From positions 26,969-90,968 of the IMG/VR virus record IMGVR_UViG_3300045988_095676: a stretch of 64,000 nt of DNA; one strand, written 5' to 3'. A program made the position numbers and the translations under genes. Shown one piece after another: positions 5,634 to 62,553 of the stretch. Numbering within the stretch: position 1 is the stretch's first letter; the number at the start of each line of letters is the position of its first letter. Below the pieces are notes generated by a model that saw only the letters and a list, made by a program, of their open reading frames with translations, had not been told where the DNA came from and ran no database searches. This stretch comes from a virus.

Positions 5634-6056
5634 ATGAAGATAAACTTTTTAAGCAGTAAAACCTATGTAGGTTCTAAGACAAAAGAAGCTAAAATCAGAA
5701 AGCTTTCTATTAGCAAAGATCGGATTATGACCATATCGGTGGACAATCTGAAATGGATGGGTATCGAAGATGCGGTTATTATTGGTATGGAAGAAGGAGC
5801 TGAGTTTAAAGGGGTGTTGGATTCTAATTTGTATATAGCTCCTTCTAAGGTAGAAGACGAGAGATCGTTTTTATTAAATAAACAAGGTGAGAAATATAGA
5901 CGTATTTACCTCCGTGATGTACTGTCTTCGTTAGGTTGGGATATCGGTGATAATCAGTATGCGGTTTATGATATTGTGAAGGTTAAGGACGAAGATGGTG
6001 TGTTCTGCCTGGTTCCGAGAGAGATTAAGAAAAGTAAGTTTGAGAAAGGAGAATGA
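5634..6056 (+). CDS. hypothetical protein (140 aa)
   Basis: ORF track; its stop abuts the start of the next gene. Confidence 0.45.
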   Translation: MKINFLSSKTYVGSKTKEAKIRKLSISKDRIMTISVDNLKWMGIEDAVIIGMEEGAEFKGVLDSNLYIAPSKVEDERSFLLNKQGEKYRRIYLRDVLSSLGWDIGDNQYAVYDIVKVKDEDGVFCLVPREIKKSKFEKGE

Positions 6057-6057
6057 T

Positions 6058-6936
6058 ATGGTACAAGATATTGATATAAAATCCAAACGAATATTATTGT
6101 TTGATTTTGATGGAACGCTTATAGAAACCGCTTCTGGGAATACGTTCGCTACAGACTTGACAGATATGAGGATTAAGATGGATGTGGTGAATAAGGCTCT
6201 TGACCTCATGCAGGAGAACGGTGTTAAGGTATTTGCTATCGTAAGCAATCAAGGAGGAGTAGAAGCTGGGTTTGTTTCTGGAGCTGATATTGAAGCTAAG
6301 ATAGAATACGTACTGAGGTCCGTACATGATCTGGCGGTAAAGAGAGGTATAAGAGGCGTCCTATATGAAAAAAGGTTGTGTTATTCAAATGACGAACAAA
6401 ATCCGATGAGGAAGCCTAATACGGGCATGATTGATGATATTCTTATGAAGTGTAAAGACACGGTAATGCGCGGTATGAACTTCAGTCAACTTAAGGGATG
6501 TTCGTTGATGGTCGGGGACGCCAGTGGTCTGCCAGGGCAGTTCTCTGATTCGGATAAGGTATGTGCCTATAATTCCGGTATTAACTATATGGATATTACT
6601 ACATTTTTGGATAAAGATCTTGATTTAGAATATGTATTGTCCAAAGAACATACAAGTGAAGGAATAGTTATTCTAAACAACGATCATATATATATCCTTG
6701 AAAATCCATATGGGGTTGGTCTTAATATAAAAATCACTTTAAAAGATTTTTATAAGATTGAAACCGATGATGGAAAAACTGCAACCGTAGATGATGTGCT
6801 GAATATAAGGATTGATAAAGATCAGAATTTTAATTCATATAGTGATGTTATAAAAATAGAAACATTAAAAGACGGTAGTATCAAATATACAAGCTTATAT
6901 CATGAAAGTAAAGAAAACAGCGATAGTTTATCATAA
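6058..6936 (+). CDS. HAD-superfamily (subfamily IIIA) phosphatase, polynucleotide 3'-phosphatase / GmhB-like
   Basis: Motif I LLFDFDGTLIET (DxDGT), motif II IVSNQGG, motif III RKPNTGM, motif IV MVGDASG..SDSD. Start moved to the ATG at 6058 immediately after the upstream stop. Confidence 0.7.
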   Translation: MVQDIDIKSKRILLFDFDGTLIETASGNTFATDLTDMRIKMDVVNKALDLMQENGVKVFAIVSNQGGVEAGFVSGADIEAKIEYVLRSVHDLAVKRGIRGVLYEKRLCYSNDEQNPMRKPNTGMIDDILMKCKDTVMRGMNFSQLKGCSLMVGDASGLPGQFSDSDKVCAYNSGINYMDITTFLDKDLDLEYVLSKEHTSEGIVILNNDHIYILENPYGVGLNIKITLKDFYKIETDDGKTATVDDVLNIRIDKDQNFNSYSDVIKIETLKDGSIKYTSLYHESKENSDSLS

Positions 6937-7858
6937 ATCGGATTTAGATGGCGTTGTATCGGCAGCCATCGCAACCATGTACGAAAACAGTAAAAACAAG
7001 GATGTTGTTTATATCCCGTATTCGTATGAAGATGATGTTAAGAAAGTTGTTGACCAAGTACGTGACTTAGATGTTGTTTATGTTCTTGACGTGTCTTTTG
7101 GAGCCGATTCTAAAACTGTTTTCAAAAAGTGGCTTGATGAAGGGAAGAGCCTGATGTGGATAGATCACCACAAGGGAATTATTGAGGACAGTAAGACATG
7201 GGGGTTCGTAGTTCCAGGGTTGAGGAGGGTCGGTGTCGGTGCGTGCGCTCTGGCTTCGGACCTGCTTATGGGGAAGGTGCCGGCGATCGTCCGATGCCTG
7301 TCAGACTACGATGTGTGGAATAAAGAATCTGGCTTAGGCTGGGATACGGTAGTAGCTGTCCAGTATGCCTTGAGATCAAAAATAAGACTCAATGTATTGA
7401 TTGCATTGTCGTATTTATATGATCACTTTAAAGAAAACATGAAAGACAATGAAATTGATCTTATTTTTTATGATCTTGCTAAAGAAGGACGTGCTATAAT
7501 TAATTACATGGCTTGTAAAAACGAAGATGAGGTAAGTAGGTACTCGTTCGAAGCTTACGTCGACGAGGTTAAGGTTATGGCTATGAATACCGCTGAATTT
7601 AGCTCTAAGGTATTTGATTCTCTTACACCGGACTGGTTAGACGGTAGAAAAATTAAAGCCCTGATGCCATTTTGTATCATGCCATGTGGAAAAGTTAGGT
7701 TCTCTCTTTACGAATGCGTAGAAGACAGCGTAGATTGCTGTGAGGTAAGTAAGAGATTCGGTGGTGGAGGACATGCTGGTGCTGCTGGATTCGTTATAGA
7801 CGTATCAAGTGACCAGTTTAAGGACTTCCTTGAAAGTAAAAAACTTTTATCGAAATGA
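6902..7858 (+). CDS. DHH/DHHA1-family phosphoesterase (NrnA-like nanoRNase / pAp phosphatase type)
   Basis: HKSDLDGVVSA (DxD motif), VLDVSFG, WIDHHKG (DHH motif), C-terminal GGGGHAGAAGF (DHHA1 GGGH motif). Confidence 0.7.
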   Translation: MKVKKTAIVYHKSDLDGVVSAAIATMYENSKNKDVVYIPYSYEDDVKKVVDQVRDLDVVYVLDVSFGADSKTVFKKWLDEGKSLMWIDHHKGIIEDSKTWGFVVPGLRRVGVGACALASDLLMGKVPAIVRCLSDYDVWNKESGLGWDTVVAVQYALRSKIRLNVLIALSYLYDHFKENMKDNEIDLIFYDLAKEGRAIINYMACKNEDEVSRYSFEAYVDEVKVMAMNTAEFSSKVFDSLTPDWLDGRKIKALMPFCIMPCGKVRFSLYECVEDSVDCCEVSKRFGGGGHAGAAGFVIDVSSDQFKDFLESKKLLSK

Positions 7859-8226
7859 AGCGTGAATTATATCAGTTCTATCCGGAAGTCTATCCTTTTA
7901 ATCTGTGGATATACGTAGGAAAAGATGTATCTGGCATGGTAGAATGTTTCAATAACGATTTTAGTTACGTAGATAATAGCAAGGCTGTAACTGTATCCGT
8001 TCCATACGGAGGGTGTAAATTAAATCCTAATACGGGATTTTTGATATGGTTTCTTAATAAGAAAATAATTGATTTTGAAACAGTTTGCCATGAAGCATCC
8101 CATGTTTCTACTGAAGCTTTTAATTTCTTAGGAGAAGAAGTAAAAAACTTCAGAACCATTCTCGTATCTCAATGGATGGATAGGGAGAAAGTGCGAGGAA
8201 GTAAAGATCGGAATAGCCGAAGATAA
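7855..8226 (+). CDS. hypothetical protein (123 aa)
   Basis: ORF track; ATGA overlap with the DHH gene. Confidence 0.45.
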   Translation: MKRELYQFYPEVYPFNLWIYVGKDVSGMVECFNNDFSYVDNSKAVTVSVPYGGCKLNPNTGFLIWFLNKKIIDFETVCHEASHVSTEAFNFLGEEVKNFRTILVSQWMDREKVRGSKDRNSRR

Positions 8227-8294
8227 ACTAATATGGGAAAGTAAATAATTACCGTCGTAAAATAAGTATGGGGAACTTTGGATAGGTTCCCCAT

Positions 8295-8385
8295 ATTTTT
8301 ATGTGATGAGGGAGAGGAATGGTGAAATGTTTATGTGATGGGAGAGATATGAGAAAGAGGTTTATGTGATGGGAGAGAGGGGGTA
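8295..8385 (+). repeat. three direct iteron-like repeats TTATGTGATGGGAGAGA spaced about 30 bp apart
   Basis: ttatgtgatgagggagagg / tttatgtgatgggagagat / tttatgtgatgggagagag read directly in the sequence. Confidence 0.8.
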
Positions 8386-8540
8386 CCTATCACGAACCTC
8401 CCGCCCCCGAAACGCGTTTTCTCCCCCGCACCCCCCTTCGCTGGAAAACCGGAAACGCGTTTTACCTCAAACCCACAAACTCTCTGATTATCAATCACTT
8501 ATTTAAATTATTGATAATCAATGTGTTATTATAACATATT
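8386..8540. promoter_or_regulatory. GC-rich island with C-tracts, two AACGCGTT palindromes and an 11-bp inverted repeat TGATTATCAAT..ATTGATAATCA
   Basis: cctcccgcccccgaaacgcgttttctcccccgcaccccccttcgctggaaaaccggaaacgcgtttta, then ctgattatcaatcacttatttaaattattgataatcaat. Ori-like or pac-like architecture; function is inferred. Confidence 0.45.
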
Positions 8541-8718
8541 GATTATAAGCCACTTAAATAAGCATATATCCTACATATTAATGTACGCGTATAACACTGC
8601 TCTCGTTCGTTTTATAACTTTCTGATAATCAGATAATATAATCGAAATTAATACAAATTAACAAAAAAAAGATATCATATATATTTGTAGTATTGATAAA
8701 TGTCGTATATTTGCGTCG

Positions 8719-8738
8719 TGATCGAGAGAGATCACGAG
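8719..8738. repeat. perfect palindrome CGTGATC-gagaga-GATCACG
   Basis: Seen directly; lies in the 8.2-8.86 kb non-coding region. Confidence 0.7.
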
Positions 8739-8858
8739 TTAACATAGTGAACCTATATAGTGTACCCGTTGGGCTAACTATATATGTATCTGTAATTGCC
8801 TGCGTTGTGGGTCATTAATTTGAATATCATTTGTTTAACAATTAAAATATATTGGGAT

Positions 8859-9398
8859 ATGATTACGAAAAAAAATGTAAACAAACTACAGAATGCCGTT
8901 ATCAAAGAAAATGCTGCAAATTTGGTAGGTGCTGTTAAACTGTACAACGCTCTATTTGCTAATGGAGCTGATCTAAAGGCTATTTGCAAGGCTTTGGAAA
9001 TACCGGCAGAATACGCCGTAAAGGTTGCAGCCCTCGCCAAGGATAAAAAACGCCTGGTAGCCGTGTGTAGCCAAATGTTACCGAAAGTTGATAATACCTT
9101 TGTTAAATTTGCTTTATACTCTAAAGTATATAAGGATACCAATGCGGACAAAGAAAAAGGAATTGAAGCTAAAACGGCTGATTGGTGCGCTGAGAATGTG
9201 GTTTACGGTAGCGAATATAAAGCATTTGGTTTTACTACTGCCGAATCATTGGAGAATAAAAAAAGTACTAAATGGTTGGTAAAAGAAACCGACGAGTACA
9301 AATCTACTTATGTGGCTGTTAAGATCAAATCTTATTCTATTCGCACTGTGGCAAAGTGTGTAAGTGAATACCTCGCACATGAAAGCAACCAGCAGTAA
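8859..9398 (+). CDS. hypothetical protein (180 aa)
   Basis: Start moved to the internal ATG at 8859, which is preceded by the conserved 19-mer TGTTTAACAATTAAAATAT. The annotated upstream extension would run through the palindrome region. Confidence 0.45.
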   Translation: MITKKNVNKLQNAVIKENAANLVGAVKLYNALFANGADLKAICKALEIPAEYAVKVAALAKDKKRLVAVCSQMLPKVDNTFVKFALYSKVYKDTNADKEKGIEAKTADWCAENVVYGSEYKAFGFTTAESLENKKSTKWLVKETDEYKSTYVAVKIKSYSIRTVAKCVSEYLAHESNQQ

Positions 9399-9983
9399 CA
9401 AGGCACGGAGAGCGCCGTTAAGCTCTCCAAAGGTTTGACGCGTACCGTTAAACGCGTCTGTACGCCGTTGTCAGTGGGTGCACGTCCCGCGTATGCTTTA
9501 GACTGAAGCTGACAAAACAGAGAGTTATTTTACATATTGGAGATAGATATACCGGTATCGAGGCCGTTGGCAATTAAAAATACGGTATTGCTGCATGAAC
9601 TGCACTAAATAAGTGTGGTTTATGTTAGGTATGTTAGTACAGTTTGGAAAACATACCGTTGTACGCGGTTTATCTCCAGACCGAAACGTGTCTTACTTGC
9701 CTACACGTAAAATAGGACAAGGCTGTAGATTAAATTACAGGGTATAAACATGTAGCCTACCATGTAGGAGCGTGATATATCAAAGCGCAAGGACACAATC
9801 GCCTTTATTTGTGGCTAAGTTGTGTAGCAGACGGAAAATATAATAACAACATAGTACGAGCCTGTACGCAAGAACTACGTACTAATTACGGGCTGTTGGT
9901 TGTAGCATAAAATCTCTATAGGATAGGAATGCGTGTCCGGTTCGATTCCGGAGCAACCTCTAAATTATAAATAATATAATAGC
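9399..9983 (+). ncRNA. 585-bp ORF-free, locally GC-rich structured region ending in a tRNA-like T-arm/acceptor minihelix (9897-9960)
   Basis: No ORF of 60 aa or more on either strand. 3' end has TCCGG-TTCGATT-CCGGA (T-loop identical to the tRNA-Cys T-loop) plus a 6-bp acceptor-like pairing GGTTGT/GCAACC. Only about 32 nt lie between the acceptor and the T-arm, so it is not a canonical tRNA. Confidence 0.4.
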
Positions 9984-10154
9984 ATGGAAAAGAAAGCAAT
10001 GATCAACGCTTTAATTGAAGCGTTCAATAAATCTAAAAACAGTTGCGTAAAAATAACATTGCGTAACTATATCGAGACGGTGGAAACATTGAGCGAAAGT
10101 GAGTACAAAGAGGCGGAAGGTTTCTATATCGAAGCACTTAACCGCTGGAGTTAA
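9984..10154 (+). CDS. hypothetical small protein (56 aa)
   Basis: ATG 24 nt after the tRNA-like minihelix; ORF translated by hand (MEKKAMINALIEAF...NRWS). Below the track cutoff. Confidence 0.35.
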   Translation: MEKKAMINALIEAFNKSKNSCVKITLRNYIETVETLSESEYKEAEGFYIEALNRWS

Positions 10155-10176
10155 TCATAATTAAAGCATAAAGAAA

Positions 10177-10383
10177 ATGGAAAGGAAATTTAAATCTTAT
10201 ATGGTAGACGTCCGCGGTCTGTCCAGGAAAGAAGCTAAAGAAAAGCGGAAAAGAGCGTATCGGGAATTTATGTTGTATCGTGATCTCAAAGAAGCGTATC
10301 ATGCCGATACAGGAAAGGACAAATGCAAACGTAAAGTCCATACATCACGAACATACGTGAAAGAAAACATAAACAGTATTTAA
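10177..10383 (+). CDS. small basic protein (68 aa)
   Basis: ORF track; K/R-rich; followed by a strong terminator. Confidence 0.45.
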   Translation: MERKFKSYMVDVRGLSRKEAKEKRKRAYREFMLYRDLKEAYHADTGKDKCKRKVHTSRTYVKENINSI

Positions 10384-10391
10384 ATAGGGAT

Positions 10392-10426
10392 AGGGTTGTT
10401 CCGAATATCGGAGCAGCCCTATTTTT
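10392..10426 (+). terminator. rho-independent terminator
   Basis: 12-bp stem AGGGTTGTTCCG / CGGAGCAGCCCT (includes G-U pairs), loop ATAT, then ATTTTTG. Confidence 0.65.
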
Positions 10427-10488
10427 GTATCCTACTCTTTCTATTTACGGGTAGGATATTCTGAGAGTGAACGGCGGATGTAAGCTAT

Positions 10489-10581
10489 ATTGGTCTAAAA
10501 CGAAACTAAAATATGAGAGTTTGGATACAATGCCGGTATTTTGTCTATATCATGTCGTTGAAATTGGTCTAAAACGAAACT
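10489..10581 (+). repeat. 19-bp direct repeat ATTGGTCTAAAACGAAACT, two copies 74 bp apart
   Basis: Identical copies at 10489-10507 and 10563-10581 in an 850-bp ORF-free region. Confidence 0.8.
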
Positions 10582-11086
10582 TTAGGCGGTTTTCTGACCC
10601 AAAATAGGGCGTCGGATGCCGCCTTTTTCGTCTCTATGGATTGAAAATTAGGCTTATTGTACTTTTCTTAAAAATAAGGTATGCTTGATTATCAATTAGT
10701 TAGGTTTTATGATACCCGTATTTTCGGACACACTTATTGTAAATTTTTTATTTTATGTGGTGGTTTTTATTAGTAGCTGACCTGTATTTTTTATCGGTTG
10801 GAGTAAGGTCTATGTTGGAGTACGGACCGGATCAGTATAATATTGTAATGGTCTTTTGCTTTTCTTTATTGGCTTTGATTATAGGCTTAAATATCTATCT
10901 TGATAGGAGGAGCAGGCGGTAGGGCGTGGGCTGAAGGCTCTCTATTCTCTCTATGGAATGATATTATCTCTAAATACCCCATACTTCATGCCAGAGTATA
11001 AGCTTGTAGCGCTCTCCGTATGCCGGTAGTGAGGCCGAGAGCGCAGGTTCTATGCGGAAAGCCGGAGGATTAGCCGGGGTTGGAGA

Positions 11087-11200
11087 GGGGGAGAGGGAGG
11101 GCACTCCCTACCAACAAAATTCAATAGATAAGCGTTTTAAAACAGTGTTCTGTAGATCATTTCCACAAAATTCAATATGATAAGGGTTTAAAACAGCATT
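11087..11200 (+). repeat. imperfect ~36-bp direct repeat ACAAAATTCAATAgATAAGcGTTTtAAAACAG, two copies
   Basis: ccaacaaaattcaatagataagcgttttaaaacagtgtt versus ccacaaaattcaatatgataagggtttaaaacagcatt. Preceded by the G-rich block GGAGAGGGGGAGAGGGAGGG. Confidence 0.7.
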
Positions 11201-11285
11201 ATATAGGTTCCTTCCAACAGATTAAGGGTTGAGGACTGCATTATGTGAGTATTTTTTTTTAAGCGGGATGTTTAACAATTAAAAT

Positions 11286-11555
11286 ATGGATGGTATGAAC
11301 GTATATGACTTTGCGCCTGACTTAGATTTGAGTAAGGAGGTAGAAGGTTCTATTTTCGGGGTAAAAGGAATAGAAGGCAGTGATGGAATAGTATATGCTA
11401 AGGTAGTTAGCTGTGTAGACGTTAAGGATTACAGTTGTGATAGGTGTATTTTTTATGATTGTTATAAGGATAAATGTTTATTATCGCGTAGTGATAGTTG
11501 TATAGATGGAGATTGGATTTGTAGGTACGAACAGGCTGCCATAGAGGGGGAGTAG
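11286..11555 (+). CDS. small Cys-rich protein (89 aa)
   Basis: ORF track; the conserved 19-mer TGTTTAACAATTAAAATAT ends at the ATG; eight Cys suggest metal binding. Confidence 0.45.
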   Translation: MDGMNVYDFAPDLDLSKEVEGSIFGVKGIEGSDGIVYAKVVSCVDVKDYSCDRCIFYDCYKDKCLLSRSDSCIDGDWICRYEQAAIEGE

Positions 11556-26903: not shown

Positions 26904-27371
26904 ATGGGATTAACCTATAAAACAAAATTGCTTATGAAAACATTAGAACAACTTAAAGAATTAACATCAAAATGTTTAGACGGTAGAGATTTTAACAGAC
27001 TGGCTAAATTTGTTCCATATAGCATGATAAAGGATTTCGGTATGGAGCCGAATGAAGAATATGACAACGAGGAAAAGTGGAACAGTACTGTAGTTGAATT
27101 TACCAGAGAAAATGTCCTGAAACAGCTTGAAGAAGACGTAAGATTCGGTTTTGAAAAGGCATTAAATCAGAGAGGAATATCAGCCAGTTTGATGTTTGAA
27201 TGTGTGATGATGTGGAACTACATTCTGGAAGAAGGTCTTGAAGGCTGGGGTGAGGATGATTATGCATTTTATGGACTCCCTCTATTTAAAGCTACGGCTG
27301 TAAAATATGGATGGGACAATCCGATAGGGGAAGACAGCGGGAGAGAAAGAAAATATGATTCACAATATTAA
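26904..27371 (+). CDS. hypothetical protein (155 aa)
   Basis: ORF track. Confidence 0.4.
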   Translation: MGLTYKTKLLMKTLEQLKELTSKCLDGRDFNRLAKFVPYSMIKDFGMEPNEEYDNEEKWNSTVVEFTRENVLKQLEEDVRFGFEKALNQRGISASLMFECVMMWNYILEEGLEGWGEDDYAFYGLPLFKATAVKYGWDNPIGEDSGRERKYDSQY

Positions 27372-39774: not shown

Positions 39775-40968
39775 TTGATGAGATTGGTTGAAAAACATAT
39801 TATTAAAGATAACAGATTTGAAGATATTTGCCTCAAATCAGGATTGCTATATAATTATGTCTTGTATAATGCGCGTAAAGGTATCTTCAATAAAGAATAT
39901 CTGAATGAATATGAATTTTCAACCAAACTTTGTAGAGAAAATCAATTTGATTTCAGGAATTTGCCCACTTCTGTTTCTCAACAAGTAGTTGGCCAAGTTT
40001 TTAAAAATATAAAATCATGGATTAGACTCAAGAAGGATTTTGAAAACAATCCTTCCAAATACGATAATTGTTGTCCTCATCTACCTTCGTACAAGAAAGG
40101 CAAGAAACAGAACATGGTTGTGTTCACAACTTCTGCTTGTAGGCTAAAGAAGGATGGTTGTATTCATTTTGTTAAAAATATAATTCAACCAATTAAAACT
40201 GAAATAGGAGATAGTAAATTATGTCAGGTTAGAATCATTCCACAATCTACATGCTATGTGGTTGAAGTAATTTATGAAAAGAAAGAACATAATCTAAGTC
40301 TTGATAAGGATAATGTTCTTTCGATTGATTTAGGATTGAATAATTTATGTTCATGTATCAGCAATGCCGGATTGGTTCCTTTCATTGTAAACGGGCGGAT
40401 TATGAAATCTTTTAATCAGTGGTACAATAAGAGGAAAGCTAAGTTAATGTCTTATGTTGGAGGTAAGGGTACTTCTGAAAGACTTAGACAGCTAAATAAT
40501 TATAGGAATTTTTGGATAGAAGACTACATCCACAAGGTTAGTCGATATATTGTCAATTATTGTATTACTAACAACATTGGTAGTATCGTAATAGGTTTAA
40601 ATAAAGGATGGAAACAAAAGATTAATCTTGGAAAGAAGATTAATCAAAAGTTTGTTGAAATACCTTTTTCAAGACTTATAGACAAAATATCCTATAAATG
40701 TAAGTTGGTAGGTATCAGCTTTCAAATTAATGAAGAATCCTATACATCAAAGGTTGATCATTTAGCTTTTGAGAAATTAGGGAAGCATGATGTTTACTTA
40801 GGCAAAAGAAAGAAACGTGGATTATTCCAAAGCTCAGTTGGAAAGTTGTTAAATGCGGATATCAATGGAGCTATTGGGATAGGTAGAAAAGTATTCGGTG
40901 ATTCATTTGTAAACATGATAATCGATAGTGGGTTTGCGTTTAACCCGATTAGAGTAAACATTTTGTAA
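39775..40968 (+). CDS. TnpB-like (IS200/IS605 OrfB, Cas12 ancestor) protein with degenerate zinc finger and RuvC-II; nuclease-dead candidate
   Basis: RuvC-I VLSIDLGLNN, RuvC-III NADINGAIGIG and YTSK present. RuvC-II reads IVIG-LNKGW (Glu replaced by Gly, one residue shorter). The zinc-finger segment TSKVDHLAFEKLGKHDVYLGKRKKRGLFQSSVGK has no Cys. No TnpA nearby. Confidence 0.7.
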   Translation: MMRLVEKHIIKDNRFEDICLKSGLLYNYVLYNARKGIFNKEYLNEYEFSTKLCRENQFDFRNLPTSVSQQVVGQVFKNIKSWIRLKKDFENNPSKYDNCCPHLPSYKKGKKQNMVVFTTSACRLKKDGCIHFVKNIIQPIKTEIGDSKLCQVRIIPQSTCYVVEVIYEKKEHNLSLDKDNVLSIDLGLNNLCSCISNAGLVPFIVNGRIMKSFNQWYNKRKAKLMSYVGGKGTSERLRQLNNYRNFWIEDYIHKVSRYIVNYCITNNIGSIVIGLNKGWKQKINLGKKINQKFVEIPFSRLIDKISYKCKLVGISFQINEESYTSKVDHLAFEKLGKHDVYLGKRKKRGLFQSSVGKLLNADINGAIGIGRKVFGDSFVNMIIDSGFAFNPIRVNIL

Positions 40969-56130: not shown

Positions 56131-59100
56131 CTATTTGTAACTAACGTCATCGTCTCCTTCCGAATCAGGAGTAGCGCCGATGAAGAACATCATTGACTTG
56201 TTGTTCGTCTGCTGCCACCAATTATAGGCGCGCGCTACGTCTTCCGGCGTCTTGATATTATACCATTGTTTGATAAACGTCTGTTTGGCGAGTTGCCTAA
56301 ATAACTTAGACTCTCCCTTGTATGTACCGGATGTTACTTTATCAAGTGAATAATTCCTAAGATCGGTAAGATCCTTCAGTTTTCGCCCCATAACAAACGG
56401 ATCGTTAATGATATCTACCACGTTAAGCTCCATAATAAACGGCATCTGTGAAGCTATTTCGTTTATGGTTCTGAATCCGACATAGGATCCAAATTGAGTA
56501 AGCCAACTTTCTTCGTTTTCATCATCATCACGCCATCCGGCAAGAAGCATAGATACGGCCTGCATGATAAGGAACGTGCCGGCATAGACACTGAGGCGTT
56601 TGAGATTAGTTTTTTCTACCTCATTCATATTGTCTTTATTTTCGTTCCAGGCATCTATGATGTTTTTCATACCAGACTCGGAAGCCAGGCTAAATGTTTT
56701 GGCTATCATATTCTTTAACGTAATTGACAACCCTTCCTCTTCTTGCATTGTCTGGAAATTGAAGCCACGTCTTTTCCACAGACGTTGAGCTGCCAGCACC
56801 AGCCAGCCTCGGTGGGCGGTCATGAACCTGGCTATCCAGTTGCGCGATGCGGCAGTTCGGTTTTCTTCATTCAAAGATCCGTTACATATCTGCGACAAGC
56901 TACGGACTTGATTCCTGGTTATAGCCATCTGGGTTTCAACTTCCTCAACAGTAACACCCGATCCCGGCTTTACAACCACCTTTCCATCCACGACGTCTAC
57001 CATACTCCATAAAGTACGATCTTTTAATGCGTTCCATTCTCTTTTTATGGTACTCTGTTCTTTATTGCGTTCTTTTTCCATCTTGAAATCTTGGAACGTG
57101 TAGAACCGGCCTTTGTAATAACGAACATTGTCCATAGTAGCAATCATAACCTGCGGATCAAGAGGGTAGTTCAGGATTTCCATAAAAGCATACATAGGCG
57201 AACGCATTAAGGTCCTGGCCGCTCTATTGTATCCGGCACCATACATACGATTTCGGATATTGAATATCCCCATTCTCTCACCTATGACATATAATTTGCT
57301 TTTCCTATCTATGTCTCCGGTTTCTGCTATACAAGATGGCGCAAGACGGGAAAACTCAGCCGATGCGTATTTAAGGGAATCTTTGCTTATATACTGTCCT
57401 ACGGCTGATTCCATGATGAGGTTGATATGGCCTGTCAGGGCGCCGGTAGCTGCCACAAACGGAGACAGTGCCAAGTTCATAACCGACATAAATCTTTCAA
57501 CAGCCATCATAATTCTTGTAAGGTCTACCGTATATCCTCCGATGTTCACCGTAAGTTTTTTGGTGTTCATCCTAATGCCATAATAATGATCGTTGAAGAA
57601 GTCCCTGAACATCTGATATGCTTGGGTTGCTTCAGCCTTTTTACCACCTTCAAATTGTTTATTTAGTAACATCTGCTCCAGTCCTTGGGCAAGCTCTATA
57701 GACTTCTGCTTTTCGTTGTATAACGATGATTGCATCATAAGCATCGAATAAGAGTAGCCAAAATCGTGAGATACATCATCTTGGTTCTCCAATTCATATA
57801 TGTAGTATTTAGGTATAGACCTAAGCCTGTCTTCTGGATCATACACTTCTCCTTGCCTGGTCTTACCATATAGAGAATCGTCTACTCTGTCCAGGCACAG
57901 ATCTGATACAAAATTACGAACCGTATTTTTGAAGTTAATACCCAATCCTTCTACACGTTCTATATCTTGTTTGGATATCTGTGGAATAGCATACAGGTTC
58001 GGGCTCTGCTCTTTGTATAGATCAAGGGATTGTCTTTTTATTTCCTTGAGTTTTTGAATCATATTCCACTGCTCTACGTTTTTAGTAGCAACCTCATTAC
58101 CGTCAGCATCATACTTGATACCAAAGTCATTGAAATACGATTCGTCACGATACAGGCTTTTCTTAGGCATTCGATGACCATACCCATGATCTTTTACATA
58201 ATCAGGATTACGACCGCTATTTTCGGCTTCAGATTCAGCCACCCATGCCCTTGCAGGGTCGAAAGACAAGTACGATATGTCCATGCCATAATCTTGGGTG
58301 GATGTACCGTTTTGTACGTCCTTAACCATTTGCGCCACATCTATCTCACCTCGACCGATTTTGTCGATCATAGCTGCATATCCGGTAGGCGCCATGCGTT
58401 TATAGTACGAAAAAACCTGGCTTCTGGCAAATTCATTAACAATAGCATTAGCTTCTTCTACGCCCTCTTCTCTTGTATTATTTAAAAATAAGCTGGCCAT
58501 CTTAGCATTAACAGCATTCCTGAAATCTCTACCGTCTAATTCTTTGCTTATACCAAGCTTTTCTGACAGGTAGTTGGTTTCAGATACGGTAAACAGATAT
58601 CGGTTATCAGCAGCCTTAAACAGCTTATCCCTTAAAGCCTGAATCCTTTTTGCTTTCTTCGCCGTAGTATGACGTTGTACGAACTTCCATTCCACTTCCT
58701 TGGAGTCAGCAAGAGCATTTAAATAAGACTGATTTACTTCGTTTTCAGCCTTACTGCTTTTAGTAAGGTACTTATCAATATCTTCAAGACCCACCATCTT
58801 AGCATAATCTATCAAAATAGCGTAATCGGCTTCAATAGCTTCAGATGCGGCCCTAAAAGCATCTCTTTCGGATGAGGTAAATGTCGCTTCGTTAATTTCT
58901 CCGATATCAGCCACATCGCGATTGTTTCCGATTATTTCCTTGATAATAGCCTTATTTTTTTCTATATCTTTCACAATAGAATCCACGTCAGTCGCATCTC
59001 TATCACTTGTCGTAGAACTAATGATATCATGCGCCATTTTAAGATACGAAGCCTTGTTATTTGATTCGGTACGTGCCGACTGTTCTGATTCTACATCATT

Positions 59101-62100
59101 CCAAAACCGATCGTTGAATGACAGGTGACCTCCCAACATAAGTGTCTTCAGCGCAGCTTCTCCTCCAGACTCGCTCTGAATCGTTCTTAATTTTTGCAAA
59201 AACGATTCTGATACGGCATTAGTGGCATTATTTGATTCCTTTCTCCAAACTTCATTTATAGCTTGTATTTCTTTGGCCATCTTAAGTTGGTCGCCGGTTT
59301 TTTCCACTCTCCTGGTTCCTACATATATGTATTCTGAAGCTGCTTCCTTACGTTGTTTACGAAGCAGTCCTTCTTCTTCGTAATTGCTGCTTTTAAAATA
59401 GGCAACCTCATCAAAATTACCACCGCTATCAATAAAAGGCTGCCTCAATATCCGTTTTTGCCGGGATAGGGCATTAAGATATTCTTTGGTTGTTTGAGAA
59501 ACCGGATACCCTAATTCTTCTTCAGCCTTTTTGTATATGGATTCCATTCTTGTGGCATAACTTTCGCTAAATTCCAATTCCGAATTTTCAGCATCCCACT
59601 TTTCCATCTGCTCTGTATAGATCTTTTCCTGCTCGATGGTAAAAATATCGGTATTAACCCTATCAGACGATGGTTTGAATTTAGCGTTTTCAGTAACCGT
59701 ATTTCCATCCTTGTCAACTACTTCTCTTTTAAATACGTAATTACGGTTATTGTCAACCACATCACCAATTTCTTCTTCTGATATCTCTATGTTCATGGCA
59801 GTCGCAAACGCTCGCATCTGCGCCAGCTTCTTATTACGATCGTATTTAGCCATATCAAGAGCACTACGAAGGTAATTAGAAGTTTTGCCGTCTACTTTCT
59901 GAAGCAGTTTTTCAAATTCAGATTTGTTAAAACCATGCTTTTTCGCATATGCCAGGAAATCGGATATGGCGGGCTGGGCATTCACCATCGCATTGTAATT
60001 GTCTTTGGCAATCATAGCTCCAAGAGCGTTATTGAACGGACTGGAAGAATGCTCTAATATACCGAACCACCTACTTATCCAAGAAACATCGTGTTGAACC
60101 TTGTCGAAAAATTCTTTTACTCTCTTTACCTTATCTGCCGGCACATGAAGTTCGTTCATTAACTTATCAAGCAACGTACTTTCATCAAGGTCTTGTACTG
60201 ATTTAATATCAGACTGAATACCATTGATGTCGGCAATGACGGTATTGATCCTATTTGTATAATCCTGCTTTTCACGTTCATCAAATTCGGTACTTCTGTT
60301 ACGGATATATCCTCGAAGATCGTTCATGATCGGAAGAACCTGATTGTTGATAATATCTACGTTCTTTCGATCATTGGTATTGAAGTGAAGCTTACCGTCT
60401 TTGGTATCACCATGAAGGATGGTGTTCACCACATTGCTTAAGTATCTGACCTGAGCTTCGGCTGTAGAGATCATGCTGTTCATGGCAGCCGCCATCTCAT
60501 TCTTGTCTATTTCGGTCTCTACCTTATTTATCTTATCTTCTATGGTCTTAAGCTGAGCAAGGGTCATAGACGTAGTTACAGCCCTATCAGAGCTTATCTG
60601 ACGTAAGTCTCTTAATGTTTTCCTTAATGCCAGGATCTTAGACTCAAGAAACTTGTTCTTGTTCATAGAAGAAAGGGAGTATAATGTAAAGTCATTATCC
60701 TTTAACAGAGAGGTGTCAAATCCTTTATCTATGTCAGTAATGGCAAGATCACGAATGTTTTTAATAACGTTATTCAAATCTTGTCTTTGGGTTGATAAAG
60801 CTGATTTAAGCCAGCTTACGATTCCAGAGAAAAGCTGCCGGACGCGCCCCAGGAAGGAGGTGGGCTCTACCGGCGCCTGTGCTGTGCCGGTCTGCATCTC
60901 CCTGGCGAGGATCTTTCCAAGAATTTCTCTCCTAACAGCATTATCAAGCTCAGCTCCTTCATATACTTTACCGTATGTATTATAATACTGACCTGCATAT
61001 TGGTTCCACTCTTCCGTACCTTCCACATCTTGCAGAACAGCCTCAACAGCATTCTGATCTCTGTATGCCTCTACAAGGAAGTGGGCTGTTTCTTCTACTA
61101 AATCAGATAAAGTAGCATCTTCACCAACTGCTATTACGTTATTGGCAATATCCGCCAATGCCTTAGCAGAAGGTTCGTGCCCGTATTTGGTTTGGTACTT
61201 CTCTATATAATCGGTCATACCTATGACACTAACGCCAAGAGTTTTCAGTATCTCGACAATAGAATTTCGTTGGTCACGTTCCTGCCTGCTATAATCTGAT
61301 ACGATCTTAGCTTTAGTATCAGCATAAAGATCGTTGTCTTCTAATATGAATGAAACTACAAGCGCATCAAAATGATCGTACTTGGCGTCCAATTCATTGT
61401 ATCTTCCTGACTTGAGATCGTTCTTTATCTGTTCCCTACTAATCCTTTCCGTTCCTCCGGTGGCGAGTCTCATAGTTACCTTACTGTTATCCAACGAGCT
61501 TATGGTTATCATACCTTGGTCGTTCATGGAAACATCGGAACCAAAATGATTACGGAGCTCGGTGTAGGATAAGGCTGAATTGAAAAGTCTAATTTGTCCT
61601 GTATGACCTTCTCCTGTAAGATAATAGCTTCTTGTTTCAGGATCGAATATCTTAGATCCGGACAAAAGACCTTTCTTTATAAGGTAGTTAATTATACCAC
61701 CTTTTGTTGATAAAGAAGTAGAAGCAGAAGCGGTCATGACCGGTATAAAAGATTTGGGATTATTAAGAACATACTTTCCAGCCTTGTAAGTAATGTCTGC
61801 CACGCCATCCACGGCAGATTCTTGAACGGTGCCGGATAAGAATCCTATTCTAATATCATTCCCGCCAGAGCGAAGAGCTTCTCCGTAATCTTCAAATAAT
61901 TGATTACGATCATTCATGAAAAACAAACGAGGCTCTCCGGTCTGATACGTTACACCCACAGGATTAGAATCTGTCTGTGGTAACTCCTCTGGGCTAAATA
62001 TCTTAAGACCGTCTTTTATAACCATATAATTAACACCCTTATCCTGTACCATAGATACGGGAGTAAAGTCCGAAGATATAGCATCTTGTAGATACTGCCC

Positions 62101-62553
62101 GGCGTCTATTCCCGGTCCTTCCGGTACGGAAATACTTGACGGGACCATAGCATCTACCAACATAATATTATCACCCAGATCTTGGCTGTAGAATCCAAAG
62201 CCTGATTCTTGGATTTCATAAGGTGCATCTGATTTTGACACAAGAACAGGGTTACTCATCTTAGAAGCCTTATCCAGCACCCTTTCTCTATAGGCTTCCG
62301 GAATAAGATCGATGTTGGATTTCACCTTATTGTAGGCCGGTTTATTAACAGGTACATTCCTTCTCCAGTCGCCAAAAGCCTTCAAGAACTTATTAGAAAA
62401 TACGGTTTTAAAAACAGTAGTAGCCCGTTCCCTGTTCTCCATAAGAGGAATAGATGCTATCTTATCAAACAACATAGACCTGTCCCCTGATCTGGTAGAG
62501 ACAGAAACAACTTTCTTTTTATTATCTCTTTTAATAATACACGTTGATGTCAT
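56131..62553 (-). CDS. giant 2140-aa virion-associated protein (tape-measure-like or ejected/polyvalent protein; function unknown)
   Basis: Uninterrupted 6.4-kb ORF. Largely alpha-helical, charge-rich composition with hydrophobic segments near the C-terminus (AVSMLLAGW, LALSPFVAATGAL). Flanked upstream by small minus-strand genes and downstream by small N/G-rich genes. Confidence 0.4.
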   Translation of the reverse strand: MTSTCIIKRDNKKKVVSVSTRSGDRSMLFDKIASIPLMENRERATTVFKTVFSNKFLKAFGDWRRNVPVNKPAYNKVKSNIDLIPEAYRERVLDKASKMSNPVLVSKSDAPYEIQESGFGFYSQDLGDNIMLVDAMVPSSISVPEGPGIDAGQYLQDAISSDFTPVSMVQDKGVNYMVIKDGLKIFSPEELPQTDSNPVGVTYQTGEPRLFFMNDRNQLFEDYGEALRSGGNDIRIGFLSGTVQESAVDGVADITYKAGKYVLNNPKSFIPVMTASASTSLSTKGGIINYLIKKGLLSGSKIFDPETRSYYLTGEGHTGQIRLFNSALSYTELRNHFGSDVSMNDQGMITISSLDNSKVTMRLATGGTERISREQIKNDLKSGRYNELDAKYDHFDALVVSFILEDNDLYADTKAKIVSDYSRQERDQRNSIVEILKTLGVSVIGMTDYIEKYQTKYGHEPSAKALADIANNVIAVGEDATLSDLVEETAHFLVEAYRDQNAVEAVLQDVEGTEEWNQYAGQYYNTYGKVYEGAELDNAVRREILGKILAREMQTGTAQAPVEPTSFLGRVRQLFSGIVSWLKSALSTQRQDLNNVIKNIRDLAITDIDKGFDTSLLKDNDFTLYSLSSMNKNKFLESKILALRKTLRDLRQISSDRAVTTSMTLAQLKTIEDKINKVETEIDKNEMAAAMNSMISTAEAQVRYLSNVVNTILHGDTKDGKLHFNTNDRKNVDIINNQVLPIMNDLRGYIRNRSTEFDEREKQDYTNRINTVIADINGIQSDIKSVQDLDESTLLDKLMNELHVPADKVKRVKEFFDKVQHDVSWISRWFGILEHSSSPFNNALGAMIAKDNYNAMVNAQPAISDFLAYAKKHGFNKSEFEKLLQKVDGKTSNYLRSALDMAKYDRNKKLAQMRAFATAMNIEISEEEIGDVVDNNRNYVFKREVVDKDGNTVTENAKFKPSSDRVNTDIFTIEQEKIYTEQMEKWDAENSELEFSESYATRMESIYKKAEEELGYPVSQTTKEYLNALSRQKRILRQPFIDSGGNFDEVAYFKSSNYEEEGLLRKQRKEAASEYIYVGTRRVEKTGDQLKMAKEIQAINEVWRKESNNATNAVSESFLQKLRTIQSESGGEAALKTLMLGGHLSFNDRFWNDVESEQSARTESNNKASYLKMAHDIISSTTSDRDATDVDSIVKDIEKNKAIIKEIIGNNRDVADIGEINEATFTSSERDAFRAASEAIEADYAILIDYAKMVGLEDIDKYLTKSSKAENEVNQSYLNALADSKEVEWKFVQRHTTAKKAKRIQALRDKLFKAADNRYLFTVSETNYLSEKLGISKELDGRDFRNAVNAKMASLFLNNTREEGVEEANAIVNEFARSQVFSYYKRMAPTGYAAMIDKIGRGEIDVAQMVKDVQNGTSTQDYGMDISYLSFDPARAWVAESEAENSGRNPDYVKDHGYGHRMPKKSLYRDESYFNDFGIKYDADGNEVATKNVEQWNMIQKLKEIKRQSLDLYKEQSPNLYAIPQISKQDIERVEGLGINFKNTVRNFVSDLCLDRVDDSLYGKTRQGEVYDPEDRLRSIPKYYIYELENQDDVSHDFGYSYSMLMMQSSLYNEKQKSIELAQGLEQMLLNKQFEGGKKAEATQAYQMFRDFFNDHYYGIRMNTKKLTVNIGGYTVDLTRIMMAVERFMSVMNLALSPFVAATGALTGHINLIMESAVGQYISKDSLKYASAEFSRLAPSCIAETGDIDRKSKLYVIGERMGIFNIRNRMYGAGYNRAARTLMRSPMYAFMEILNYPLDPQVMIATMDNVRYYKGRFYTFQDFKMEKERNKEQSTIKREWNALKDRTLWSMVDVVDGKVVVKPGSGVTVEEVETQMAITRNQVRSLSQICNGSLNEENRTAASRNWIARFMTAHRGWLVLAAQRLWKRRGFNFQTMQEEEGLSITLKNMIAKTFSLASESGMKNIIDAWNENKDNMNEVEKTNLKRLSVYAGTFLIMQAVSMLLAGWRDDDENEESWLTQFGSYVGFRTINEIASQMPFIMELNVVDIINDPFVMGRKLKDLTDLRNYSLDKVTSGTYKGESKLFRQLAKQTFIKQWYNIKTPEDVARAYNWWQQTNNKSMMFFIGATPDSEGDDDVSYK

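Follow-up and report, generated by a model that had tools for sequence, protein, structure and literature searches.

Evidence for a structured non-coding RNA family with a tRNA-like 3' module in a lineage of human-gut phages

The DNA analysed here (the window) comprises 64,000 nt of IMG/VR virus record IMGVR_UViG_3300045988_095676 (positions 26,969 to 90,968), and all coordinates refer to the window unless stated otherwise. Between a gene for a protein of 179 amino acids (aa) and a 56-codon open reading frame (ORF) starting at position 9984 lies a region, 9399–9983, which a preliminary description had proposed to encode a structured non-coding RNA (ncRNA) ending in a minihelix of a tRNA-like T arm and acceptor. 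The region indeed contains no ORF of 60 codons or more on either strand, the longest being 44, 41, 33, 31 and 31 aa. The claim that the surrounding genome is otherwise densely coding was correct only in part, as two further ORF-poor, repeat-rich gaps are located nearby (8227–8858 and 10429–11285). The reported G + C enrichment is real, if modest (0.475–0.48 in 200-nt windows over 9300–9599, against approximately 0.33–0.43 in the flanks), and the GC-rich palindromic blocks correspond to helices: gcgcgtaccgttaaacgcgtc forms hairpin P1 and gtacgagcctgtacgcaagaactacgtac lies within a pseudoknot, PK3. Comparison with relatives revealed approximately 25 helices and three pseudoknots supported by covariation, and we are confident that the region encodes a real, functional, structured ncRNA family (Table 1).

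Among 50,697 phage genomes only one close record was found, that of phage csAssE-Sib (OR575929.1, 151 kb, human gut), which is 86.6% identical. The RNA is a gene of a lineage of human-gut phages of approximately 150 kb related to csAssE-Sib, and the phage probably infects Bacteroidota. In IMG/VR, the exact 24-mer from the T arm and acceptor is contained in 63 contigs, the central 18-mer is present in at least 113 and the upstream protein is encoded by 255. Single clusters of the 179-aa protein at 90% identity hold thousands of member sequences, and the phage lineage is encountered extremely often in metagenomes of the human gut. The region was full length in 190 of 197 related loci, which gave 110 distinct sequences, referred to here as clade 1.

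In csAssE-Sib, a 95-aa hypothetical protein (WOZ57218.1) has been annotated over the RNA (OR575929.1 556–843, corresponding to 9623–9910 of the window). Two 1-nt indels inside this ORF distinguish the window from csAssE-Sib, and the reading frame hits stops in most relatives. Indels of 1 nt, which do not preserve the frame, are polymorphic at at least four sites in the region. A stop-free stretch of at least 90 aa was retained in just 23 of the 110 distinct sequences, and no frame is kept throughout the family. A protein-coding gene in homologous phages had been named as an observation that would speak against an RNA; because the csAssE-Sib ORF is broken in the window and in most relatives, the indels are polymorphic and the frame is rarely kept, the homologues do not provide one. 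WOZ57218.1 is therefore probably a spurious gene call, by which at least one deposited genome carries a protein gene annotated over the RNA.

In clade 1, positions 9435–9975 exceed the flanking coding sequences in conservation, with a majority frequency per 20 nt of mostly 0.93–1.0 versus 0.85–0.95. The comparative alignment that had been suggested as a check showed that the helices covary among the relatives. First pairwise covariation screens were too permissive, since shared ancestry yields many spurious pairs, and structure calls were based solely on stacked helices that were verified by slide controls. The curated table comprises 26 helices with 132 bp, of which 59 vary and 31 changed on both sides; pairing reaches 99% or more in most helices, and sliding one strand by a single position usually cuts the pairing to 0–60%. 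For a revised set of 25 helices (135 bp; 110 sequences), 87.1% of the cells are Watson-Crick pairs, 12.2% G·U and 0.35% A·C. This set is 99.4% paired when read as RNA of the plus strand, versus 87.5% when read as the minus strand, and the share of G·U (12% of the paired cells) thus fixes the strand as plus. The 3' domain (9828–9964, 26 sequences) is 97.1% paired with seven two-sided pair changes, against 34–42% in slid controls, and none of 500 shuffles matched its observed percentage paired or its covariation score. A chance origin is unlikely: the region exceeds the neighbouring coding sequences in conservation, its helices covary, and the tRNA-like module recurs with different bases in a distant clade (see below). 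The covariation, including that of three pseudoknots, is unusually rich, and a compact RNA of approximately 530 nt is a tractable target for structure determination.

At gathering thresholds, Rfam 15 identified only four tRNAs (2283–2645) in the whole window. A permissive scan of 9200–10200 (E up to 10) gave nothing better than E = 6; the families that had been put forward for this check (tmRNA, RNase P RNA, introns and tRNA) had no match in the region. Permissive scanning of the loci of clades 2 and 3, described below, also gave no match (E up to 1). ARAGORN found the same four tRNAs and no transfer-messenger RNA (tmRNA) in the window, and nothing in the region or in loci L118 and L279–L283. 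A scan for promoters and terminators inside the RNA gave nothing beyond the shuffled expectation. The ncRNA family is new to Rfam; no description of it was present in the literature searched (csAssE, crAss-like ncRNA, non-coding regions), although this search was limited and is no proof of novelty. Group I and group II introns and RNase P RNA were considered and rejected, as there was no Rfam match and the upstream gene has its own stop codon and the downstream gene its own start codon.

The core of the RNA consists of a series of domains. Hairpin P1 is followed by PK1, of which the crossing stem (7 bp) is 100% paired with four varying pairs and drops to 0–1% after a one-position slide. Its other stem, P2, has 8 bp that are 99.9% paired, with three compensatory pairs (GUCAG/CUGAC, GUUGG/CCGAC and GGUAG/CUACC), and an invariant GGG/CCC hairpin (9476–9488) occupies the interior. 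The conserved single-stranded segment that follows is recognisable in clade 2 as UAUUUAACAUAUU. The three-arm domain is closed by P3, an 11-bp long-range helix (9538–9548/9668–9678) that is 99.4% paired with seven varying pairs; within the arms, P4a has GUAU/AUAC swapped for GCCC/GGGC, P5a and P5b together show four compensatory pairs, and P6 is 99.9% paired. The stems of PK2, of 5 and 4 bp, carry three and two compensatory pairs, respectively, and both are at least 99.6% paired. In the central core, P7 and P8 have three compensatory pairs each. Of the A-rich linker, the part GACGGRAAAU is retained in clade 3 and AAAAUAACAAC in clade 2. Stems S1 and S2 of PK3 are 100% and 99.5% paired, with two-sided changes in two pairs of each. 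Upstream of the conserved RNA, between the stop codon of the 179-aa gene and P1, a G + C-rich hairpin is present or absent among close relatives.

Table 1. Positions of the RNA, its parts and the adjacent genes and signals in the window
Feature	Position	Strand	Remarks
Whole conserved structured ncRNA, ~530 nt	9431–9960	+	Conservation, covariation; no Rfam match
Optional G+C-rich hairpin GGAGAGC...GCUCUCC	9407–9428	+	Outside conserved RNA; 28-nt indel; -14 kcal/mol
P1, 5' hairpin GACGCGU/ACGCGUC	9437–9458	+	7 bp, 95.7% paired, 1 compensatory pair
PK1: 9459–9465/9489–9495 crosses P2 9468–9475/9508–9515	9459–9515	+	H-type pseudoknot
Conserved single-stranded segment, contains UAUUUUACAUAUU	9516–9537	+	Near-invariant in clade 1
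Three-arm domain: P4 (9549–9588), P5 (9593–9625), P6 (9628–9657)	9538–9678	+	Closed by P3
PK2: 9687–9691/9703–9707 crosses 9696–9699/9718–9721	9687–9721	+	H-type pseudoknot
Central core: P7 9723–9740, P8 9741–9745/9777–9781 with P8a and P8b, motif CAAAGCGCAAGG, P9 9793–9799/9819–9825	9723–9825	+	
A-rich linker GCAGACGGAAAAUAUAAUAACAACA	9826–9851	+	Invariant in clade 1
PK3: S1 9852–9858/9878–9884, S2 9860–9866/9887–9893	9852–9893	+	H-type pseudoknot, directly 5' of tRNA-like module
tRNA-like module	9897–9960	+	Acceptor, extended arm and T arm
Acceptor, 6 bp	9898–9903/9953–9958	+	9897·9959: U·U, with U-A in some relatives
Extended arm	9905–9908/9929–9932 and 9912–9915/9921–9924	+	
T stem; T loop UUCGAUU	9936–9940/9948–9952; 9941–9947	+	
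19-nt motif TGTTTAACAATTAAAATAT, promoter/leader-like	8832–8850	+	5' of 179-aa gene; overlaps sigma-70-like match
179-aa protein gene	8859–9398	+	Always precedes RNA; possible partner or mere co-transcribed upstream cistron
Two small genes, 56 aa (9984–10154) and 68 aa (10177–10383)	9984–10383	+	Downstream of RNA
Intrinsic-terminator-like hairpin with U tract	10384–10428	+	21 bp, -29.8 kcal/mol, z = -7.8; right after 68-aa gene

The minihelix that had been recognised at the 3' end is present as described: TCCGG and CCGGA enclose the loop TTCGATT, and GCAACC, abutting the T stem, pairs with GGTTGT. In the minimum free energy (MFE) fold of 9897–9960, the 6-bp acceptor is followed by a single unpaired nucleotide, an arm of two 4-bp helices separated by an internal loop and capped by a 5-nt loop, a 3-nt linker and a T arm with a 5-bp stem and a 7-nt loop, stacked on the 3' strand of the acceptor. 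Covariation is seen in the T stem and in the inner arm. Among 26 sequences, the pair that closes the acceptor, U9903·G9953, is replaced six times by U-A and once by C-G, and where U9897·U9959 is replaced by U-A a perfect 7-bp stem is completed. The module has the features of a tRNA-like structure, also in clade 3: an acceptor stacked on a 5-bp T stem, a UUCRANN loop and the closing pair G53-C61. It was rightly described as an incomplete tRNA with 32 nt between the 5' strand of the acceptor and the T stem, and neither ARAGORN nor the Rfam tRNA models gave a call on it. With canonical tRNA (RF00005), and with the phage tRNA-Cys in particular, it shares the T stem and loop, the acceptor geometry and the trailer TCTAA. 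Unlike a tRNA, it has a 6-bp acceptor and, in the 32 nt, a single arm with a 5-nt loop, without a D arm or a 7-nt anticodon loop.

Two covariance models were built, R1 on 9828–9964 and R2 on 9717–9851. In the window R1 had only two matches, itself (173 bits) and the tRNA-Cys (2573–2645; E 0.02) of the phage tRNA cluster (Met, Gln, Arg and Cys, by ARAGORN). At the 3' end, GGTTCGATTCCG-GAG-CAA-CC-TCTAA of the module aligns with GGTTCGATTCCG-CCA-CAAGCC-TCTAA of tRNA-Cys, trailer included. Judged by this alignment, a phage tRNA gene resembling tRNA-Cys is the most probable ancestor of the module, and the comparison suggests that the descent involved loss of the D arm, the anticodon arm and one acceptor base pair. 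The case for a tRNA ancestry is a moderate one, as the match consists in part of generic T-loop sequence. The exact 24-mer of the T arm and acceptor had no match in 185,579 bacterial and archaeal species genomes, which argues against the module being the end of a host tRNA or the core of a phage attachment site (attP). No integrase was found among the neighbouring genes.

RNAalifold selected another arrangement for the acceptor strands, in which AGGUU 9431–9435 pairs with AACCU 9955–9959 and ACAAC 9846–9850 with GUUGU 9899–9903. Most of the data agree with this arrangement as well, but 7 of the 26 sequences break its accompanying pair 9934-9953 and A9431-U9959 is lost exactly where the local pair U9897-A9959 is gained, and for these reasons the local tRNA-like fold is favoured.

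More distant relatives were sought through the upstream 179-aa protein, although these protein-guided searches were twice dominated by near-identical sequences. The protein family forms 38 clusters at 50% identity, and in every clade retrieved its gene is followed by a gene-free gap of at least 410 nt. In clade 3 (L279 and L280) the neighbouring protein is 45% identical to that of the window. R2 matched L279 with an E value of 6e-7 and R1 matched the 3' end of the same gap with E 0.015, in synteny and on the same strand. In PK3 of clade 3, GUCACG/CGUGAC crosses CUAUAUC/GAUAUAG with loops of 1 and 11 nt, as in the window; its S1, of 6 bp versus 7 in the window, lay outside the model that detected it. 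The clade 3 module has acceptor ACGUAU/GUACGU and T arm AACGG-UUCAAGC-CCGUU, with an MFE topology identical to that of the window. Counted by hand, approximately 14 two-sided compensatory changes separate clade 3 from the window in PK3, the acceptor and the T stem, without disruption in the stems compared, and core, pseudoknot and module are built from almost wholly different bases. In an alignment of the core across clades, which was fitted to the model, pairing amounts to 94.6% over 31 pairs, 14 of them with two-sided changes, versus 28–46% in slid controls. In sub-clade L285 the core was detected by R2 (E 6e-5), and the contig stops short of the module. A metagenome scan with a clade-3-specific pattern gave one match, L286, which was by chance, and the P0126 clade was not found in IMG/VR. 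Three loci (L281–L283) have a gap 3' of the homologous protein, yet neither R1 nor R2 matches there; one of these, L281, has a DHH gene upstream, as does the window.

Clade 2 consists of MT836733.1 and 80 IMG/VR contigs (L118 5532–6203, L199–L278), and its protein is 33% identical to that of the window. Its similarity to clade 1 is marginal, both by nhmmer and by R2, which matched at the syntenic position with E 0.1–0.7. The two clades have several motifs in common (the UAGACU loop, UAUUUNACAUAUU, a GGC-hairpin-GGG element, GGUAC…GUAUC and AAAAUAACAAC), and in parallel positions clade 2 forms helices of its own with strong covariation, among them an 11-bp long-range helix with four compensatory pairs. 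Taken together, these syntenic matches, motifs and helices indicate homology. In the 3' part of clade 2, PK3 and the tRNA-like end are replaced by a different, G + C-rich module of approximately 200 nt without a T arm. The tRNA-like module is thus conserved in at least two clades, and seems to be an interchangeable 3' part attached to a core that is conserved more widely.

A search of the genome collection with an 18-mer of the A-rich linker gave 30 loci, 29 of which were chance matches. The real one (L301; NZ_DXLG01000138.1), a 3.9-kb contig in a Veillonella metagenome-assembled genome, contains the RNA with a score of 170 bits. It probably stems from a phage and was mis-binned, and is uninformative on the host.

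To our knowledge, large, intricately folded bacterial and phage RNAs of unassigned function are rare (OLE, GOLLD, ROOL, raiA and HEARO), and each has opened new biology. The family described here is new, and closest in kind to ROOL (RF03087) and GOLLD (RF01998), with which it shares a phage origin, a size in the order of 500–800 nt, a multi-domain architecture and several pseudoknots. ROOL and GOLLD are large pseudoknotted RNAs of phages and prophages, often located near tRNA islands (PMC12286853). In some GOLLD RNAs, tRNAs are covalently attached within a linker, and GOLLD and ROOL alike assemble into cages made of RNA only (Kretsch et al. 2025, PMC12286853). An association with tRNA exists here as well, with a tRNA cluster 7 kb upstream and a tRNA-derived module fused to the RNA; in contrast to the complete tRNA in the GOLLD linker, this module is a truncated tRNA mimic at the 3' terminus. 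Unlike ROOL and GOLLD, the RNA belongs to human-gut phages of approximately 150 kb that probably infect Bacteroidota. It is not a member of either family, as neither RF03087 nor RF01998 matched (E up to 10 for the window region, up to 1 for the clade 2 and 3 loci). GOLLD and ROOL show no more than an association with tRNAs, and an unexplained one; in the present family, the covalent link between the RNA and a tRNA mimic makes the connection directly testable.

The likeness to the 3' domain of tmRNA (SsrA) noted in the preliminary description holds for the combination of pseudoknots with an acceptor/T-arm domain lacking an anticodon arm, and a 5-bp helix could possibly close the 5' and 3' ends as in tmRNA. 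Other defining features of tmRNA were not found. The favoured 5' strand of the acceptor is local, 32 nt upstream of the T stem, and this partner fits the variation better than the terminal one; CCA is not encoded. Instead of G3·U70, position 3:70 is U-A (6-bp register) or G-C (7-bp register or closure), and G-C or C-G in clade 3. There is no conserved frame for a tag, with 1-nt indels including one in the sole candidate frame after PK1, and neither ARAGORN nor the Rfam tmRNA models gave a call.

In the 3' tRNA-like structures of plant viruses (tymoviruses, tobamoviruses), a pseudoknot lies just upstream of a tRNA mimic that engages host tRNA enzymes; these structures sit at the ends of RNA genomes, terminate with CCA or CC and build their acceptor via a pseudoknot. 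Here, a pseudoknot is likewise located directly upstream of the tRNA mimic, whereas the RNA lies inside an operon of a DNA phage and has an ordinary acceptor helix. RNase P is reported to set the 3' end of the long ncRNAs MALAT1 (at mascRNA) and NEAT1 (at menRNA) at a tRNA-like element (PMC8457004, PMC9777231). A long structured ncRNA directly followed by a reduced tRNA-like element is common to both cases and offers a model for the processing proposed below, although MALAT1 and NEAT1 are eukaryotic nuclear RNAs with a 3' end protected by a triple helix, where here a pseudoknot is found, and are not homologous. Both the plant-virus structures and MALAT1/mascRNA are mechanistic analogies only.

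The RNA appears to be part of one transcription unit. The motif TGTTTAACAATTAAAATAT has two exact copies in the 64 kb, both on the plus strand (8832–8850 and 11269–11287), each just before the first ATG after a long ORF-poor, repeat-rich gap, a placement that may point to a phage promoter or leader element. The 179-aa protein matched no known family or fold. The 56-aa gene begins 24–25 nt past the tRNA-like module, and a terminator scan found none between the RNA and the 56-aa and 68-aa genes, whereas the hairpin at 10384–10428, behind the 68-aa gene, is a very strong terminator candidate and the putative end of the unit. From this arrangement we infer a single unit of promoter-like motif, 179-aa gene, RNA, 56-aa gene, 68-aa gene and terminator.

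Taken as a whole, the best explanation, which we somewhat favour, is a stable folded phage ncRNA with a tRNA-derived 3' module that is processed from this unit by tRNA enzymes; for the processing role of the module on its own we consider the chances about even, and the role plausible. The whole unit would be transcribed as one RNA, with the ncRNA intercistronic, and the minihelix with its elbow would be recognised by the tRNA-maturation enzymes of the host. RNase P would cut 5' of G9898 and a 3' tRNase would trim after approximately 9959, possibly followed by CCA addition. Such tRNA-style punctuation would free the ncRNA from the downstream mRNA, the product being either the core with a 3' end shielded by PK3 or the full-length RNA capped by the tRNA-like fold. 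RNase P, 3' tRNases and the CCA-adding enzyme require no more of a substrate than an acceptor/T-arm minihelix with an elbow, which makes this punctuation the most economical reading. By analogy with ROOL and GOLLD, the core is expected to be an abundant RNA-only or RNA-protein particle that acts in trans early in infection, and the 179-aa protein could possibly join it.

Several observations weigh against this explanation. The acceptor is near-invariant in clade 1, and its support consists of one-sided changes and a single distant clade of two near-identical contigs. The competing partners AGGUU 9431–9435 (for the 3' strand of the acceptor) and ACAAC 9846–9850 (for GGUUGU) both fit the data. 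Taken alone, the module does not stand out thermodynamically (z-scores of -1.3 and -0.5), and the lack of an encoded CCA also counts here. Since sister clade 2 lacks the module, it is not essential to the core. Processing by RNase P and 3' tRNase is purely inferred, and the promoter and terminator are putative, called at the level of consensus.

A different use of the same module would be its release, at approximately 65 nt, as an effector in its own right, which might act on host enzymes (nucleases that target tRNA, modification enzymes or synthetases) as a decoy or competitor; the core would then be a separate RNA or a long leader. A complete minihelix with its elbow geometry and the canonical T loop would suit such a role, as would the tRNA cluster and the kinase/phosphatase and DHH phosphoesterase 1.5–3.5 kb upstream, a context of tRNA or RNA repair. 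We nevertheless regard two products as unlikely, because the arm ends in a variable 5-nt loop and does not mimic an anticodon loop, clades 1 and 3 conserve PK3 and the module together, as one unit, and clade 2 keeps the core without the module. That the element acts in cis, as a structured 3' untranslated region or intercistronic control of the flanking genes or as a replication-priming transcript near the repeat-rich gaps, would agree with its position within an apparent operon, with the iteron-like repeats flanking a 2.8-kb block and with the clustering of contig ends at both sides. Yet approximately 500 nt with some 25 covarying helices and three pseudoknots far exceed the needs of known cis regulators, and the architecture is retained although the neighbouring genes diverge to 21–45% identity, making a purely local role quite improbable.

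A tmRNA-like closure of the RNA by the terminal helix AGGUU/AACCU, or a switch between this helix and the local fold, accounts for the choice of RNAalifold; the helix is 98% paired in clade 1, clade 3 has an equivalent 5-bp option (UACGU 729–733 with ACGUA), and three pseudoknots plus a tRNA-like domain recall tmRNA. Seven relatives, however, break A9431-U9959 and at the same time improve the local U9897-A9959; with the broken pair 9934-9953, the absence of G3·U70 and of a conserved tag frame (a 1-nt indel occurs at 9514–9518) and the silence of the tmRNA models, closure is very improbable. The resemblance of the module to the 3' part and trailer of tRNA-Cys could also mean that it is a decaying tRNA pseudogene or an attP-type fragment that came to lie next to a structured region by chance. 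Clade 3 keeps its topology through compensatory changes in the acceptor and T stem, and in over 100 relatives the module either does not vary or covaries; as the 24-mer is absent from the species genomes and no integrase is adjacent, there is little room for this idea. A protein-coding gene hidden by a frameshift would explain the ORF of 95/123 aa in csAssE-Sib, but as this ORF is interrupted in the window and most relatives, with polymorphic 1-nt indels, and substitutions in the helices follow a compensatory pattern, we can practically dismiss it.

A more far-reaching combination extends the favoured account of a stable, tRNA-enzyme-processed ncRNA, and is rather doubtful as a whole. It would make the RNA a third independent class of 'ornate' RNAs of abundant human-gut phages, in which the tRNA-mimic end recruits RNase P, the CCA-adding enzyme and perhaps a synthetase or EF-Tu, and the core and the 179-aa protein form a higher-order particle. 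If true, these phages would build a tRNA-tagged RNA machine with an interchangeable 3' module, either tRNA-like (clades 1 and 3) or G + C-rich (clade 2).

Some further features of the window were recorded. The gap at 8227–8858 has an iteron-like organisation, with three copies of GTTTATGTGATGGGAGAGA at 31–32-nt spacing (8297–8378), two of CCSGAAACGCGTTTT (8406 and 8449) and a palindrome at approximately 8478–8527, a composition with which it could be an origin or regulatory region. The gap at 10429–11285 contains two copies of ATTGGTCTAAAACGAAACT (10489 and 10563), a 51-nt tandem repeat (11114–11215) and a G + C-rich block (10900–11100). Ends of many IMG/VR contigs cluster at approximately 8200–8350 and 11100–11165, and very many Logan contigs with the 179-aa gene measure 2.75–2.8 kb. 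Assembly break points therefore border the RNA-bearing 2.8-kb block on both sides, and this block may represent a terminal repeat or else a conserved island with hypervariable surroundings. Upstream, the tRNA cluster (Met, Gln, Arg-CCU and Cys; 2283–2645) is followed by genes for a polynucleotide kinase 3'-phosphatase (5995–6936) and a DHH/DHHA1 phosphoesterase (6902–7858), and the gene content suggests a context of RNA repair or tRNA metabolism. Elsewhere in the window, within the region of replication genes, a 397-aa ORF (39775–40968) matches the transposase family phrog_506 (E 1e-35), and could by this match be a mobile element that carries a guide or end RNA of its own. On the minus strand, a 2140-aa ORF (56131–62553) matches phrog_37651, 'virion structural protein', over almost its full length.

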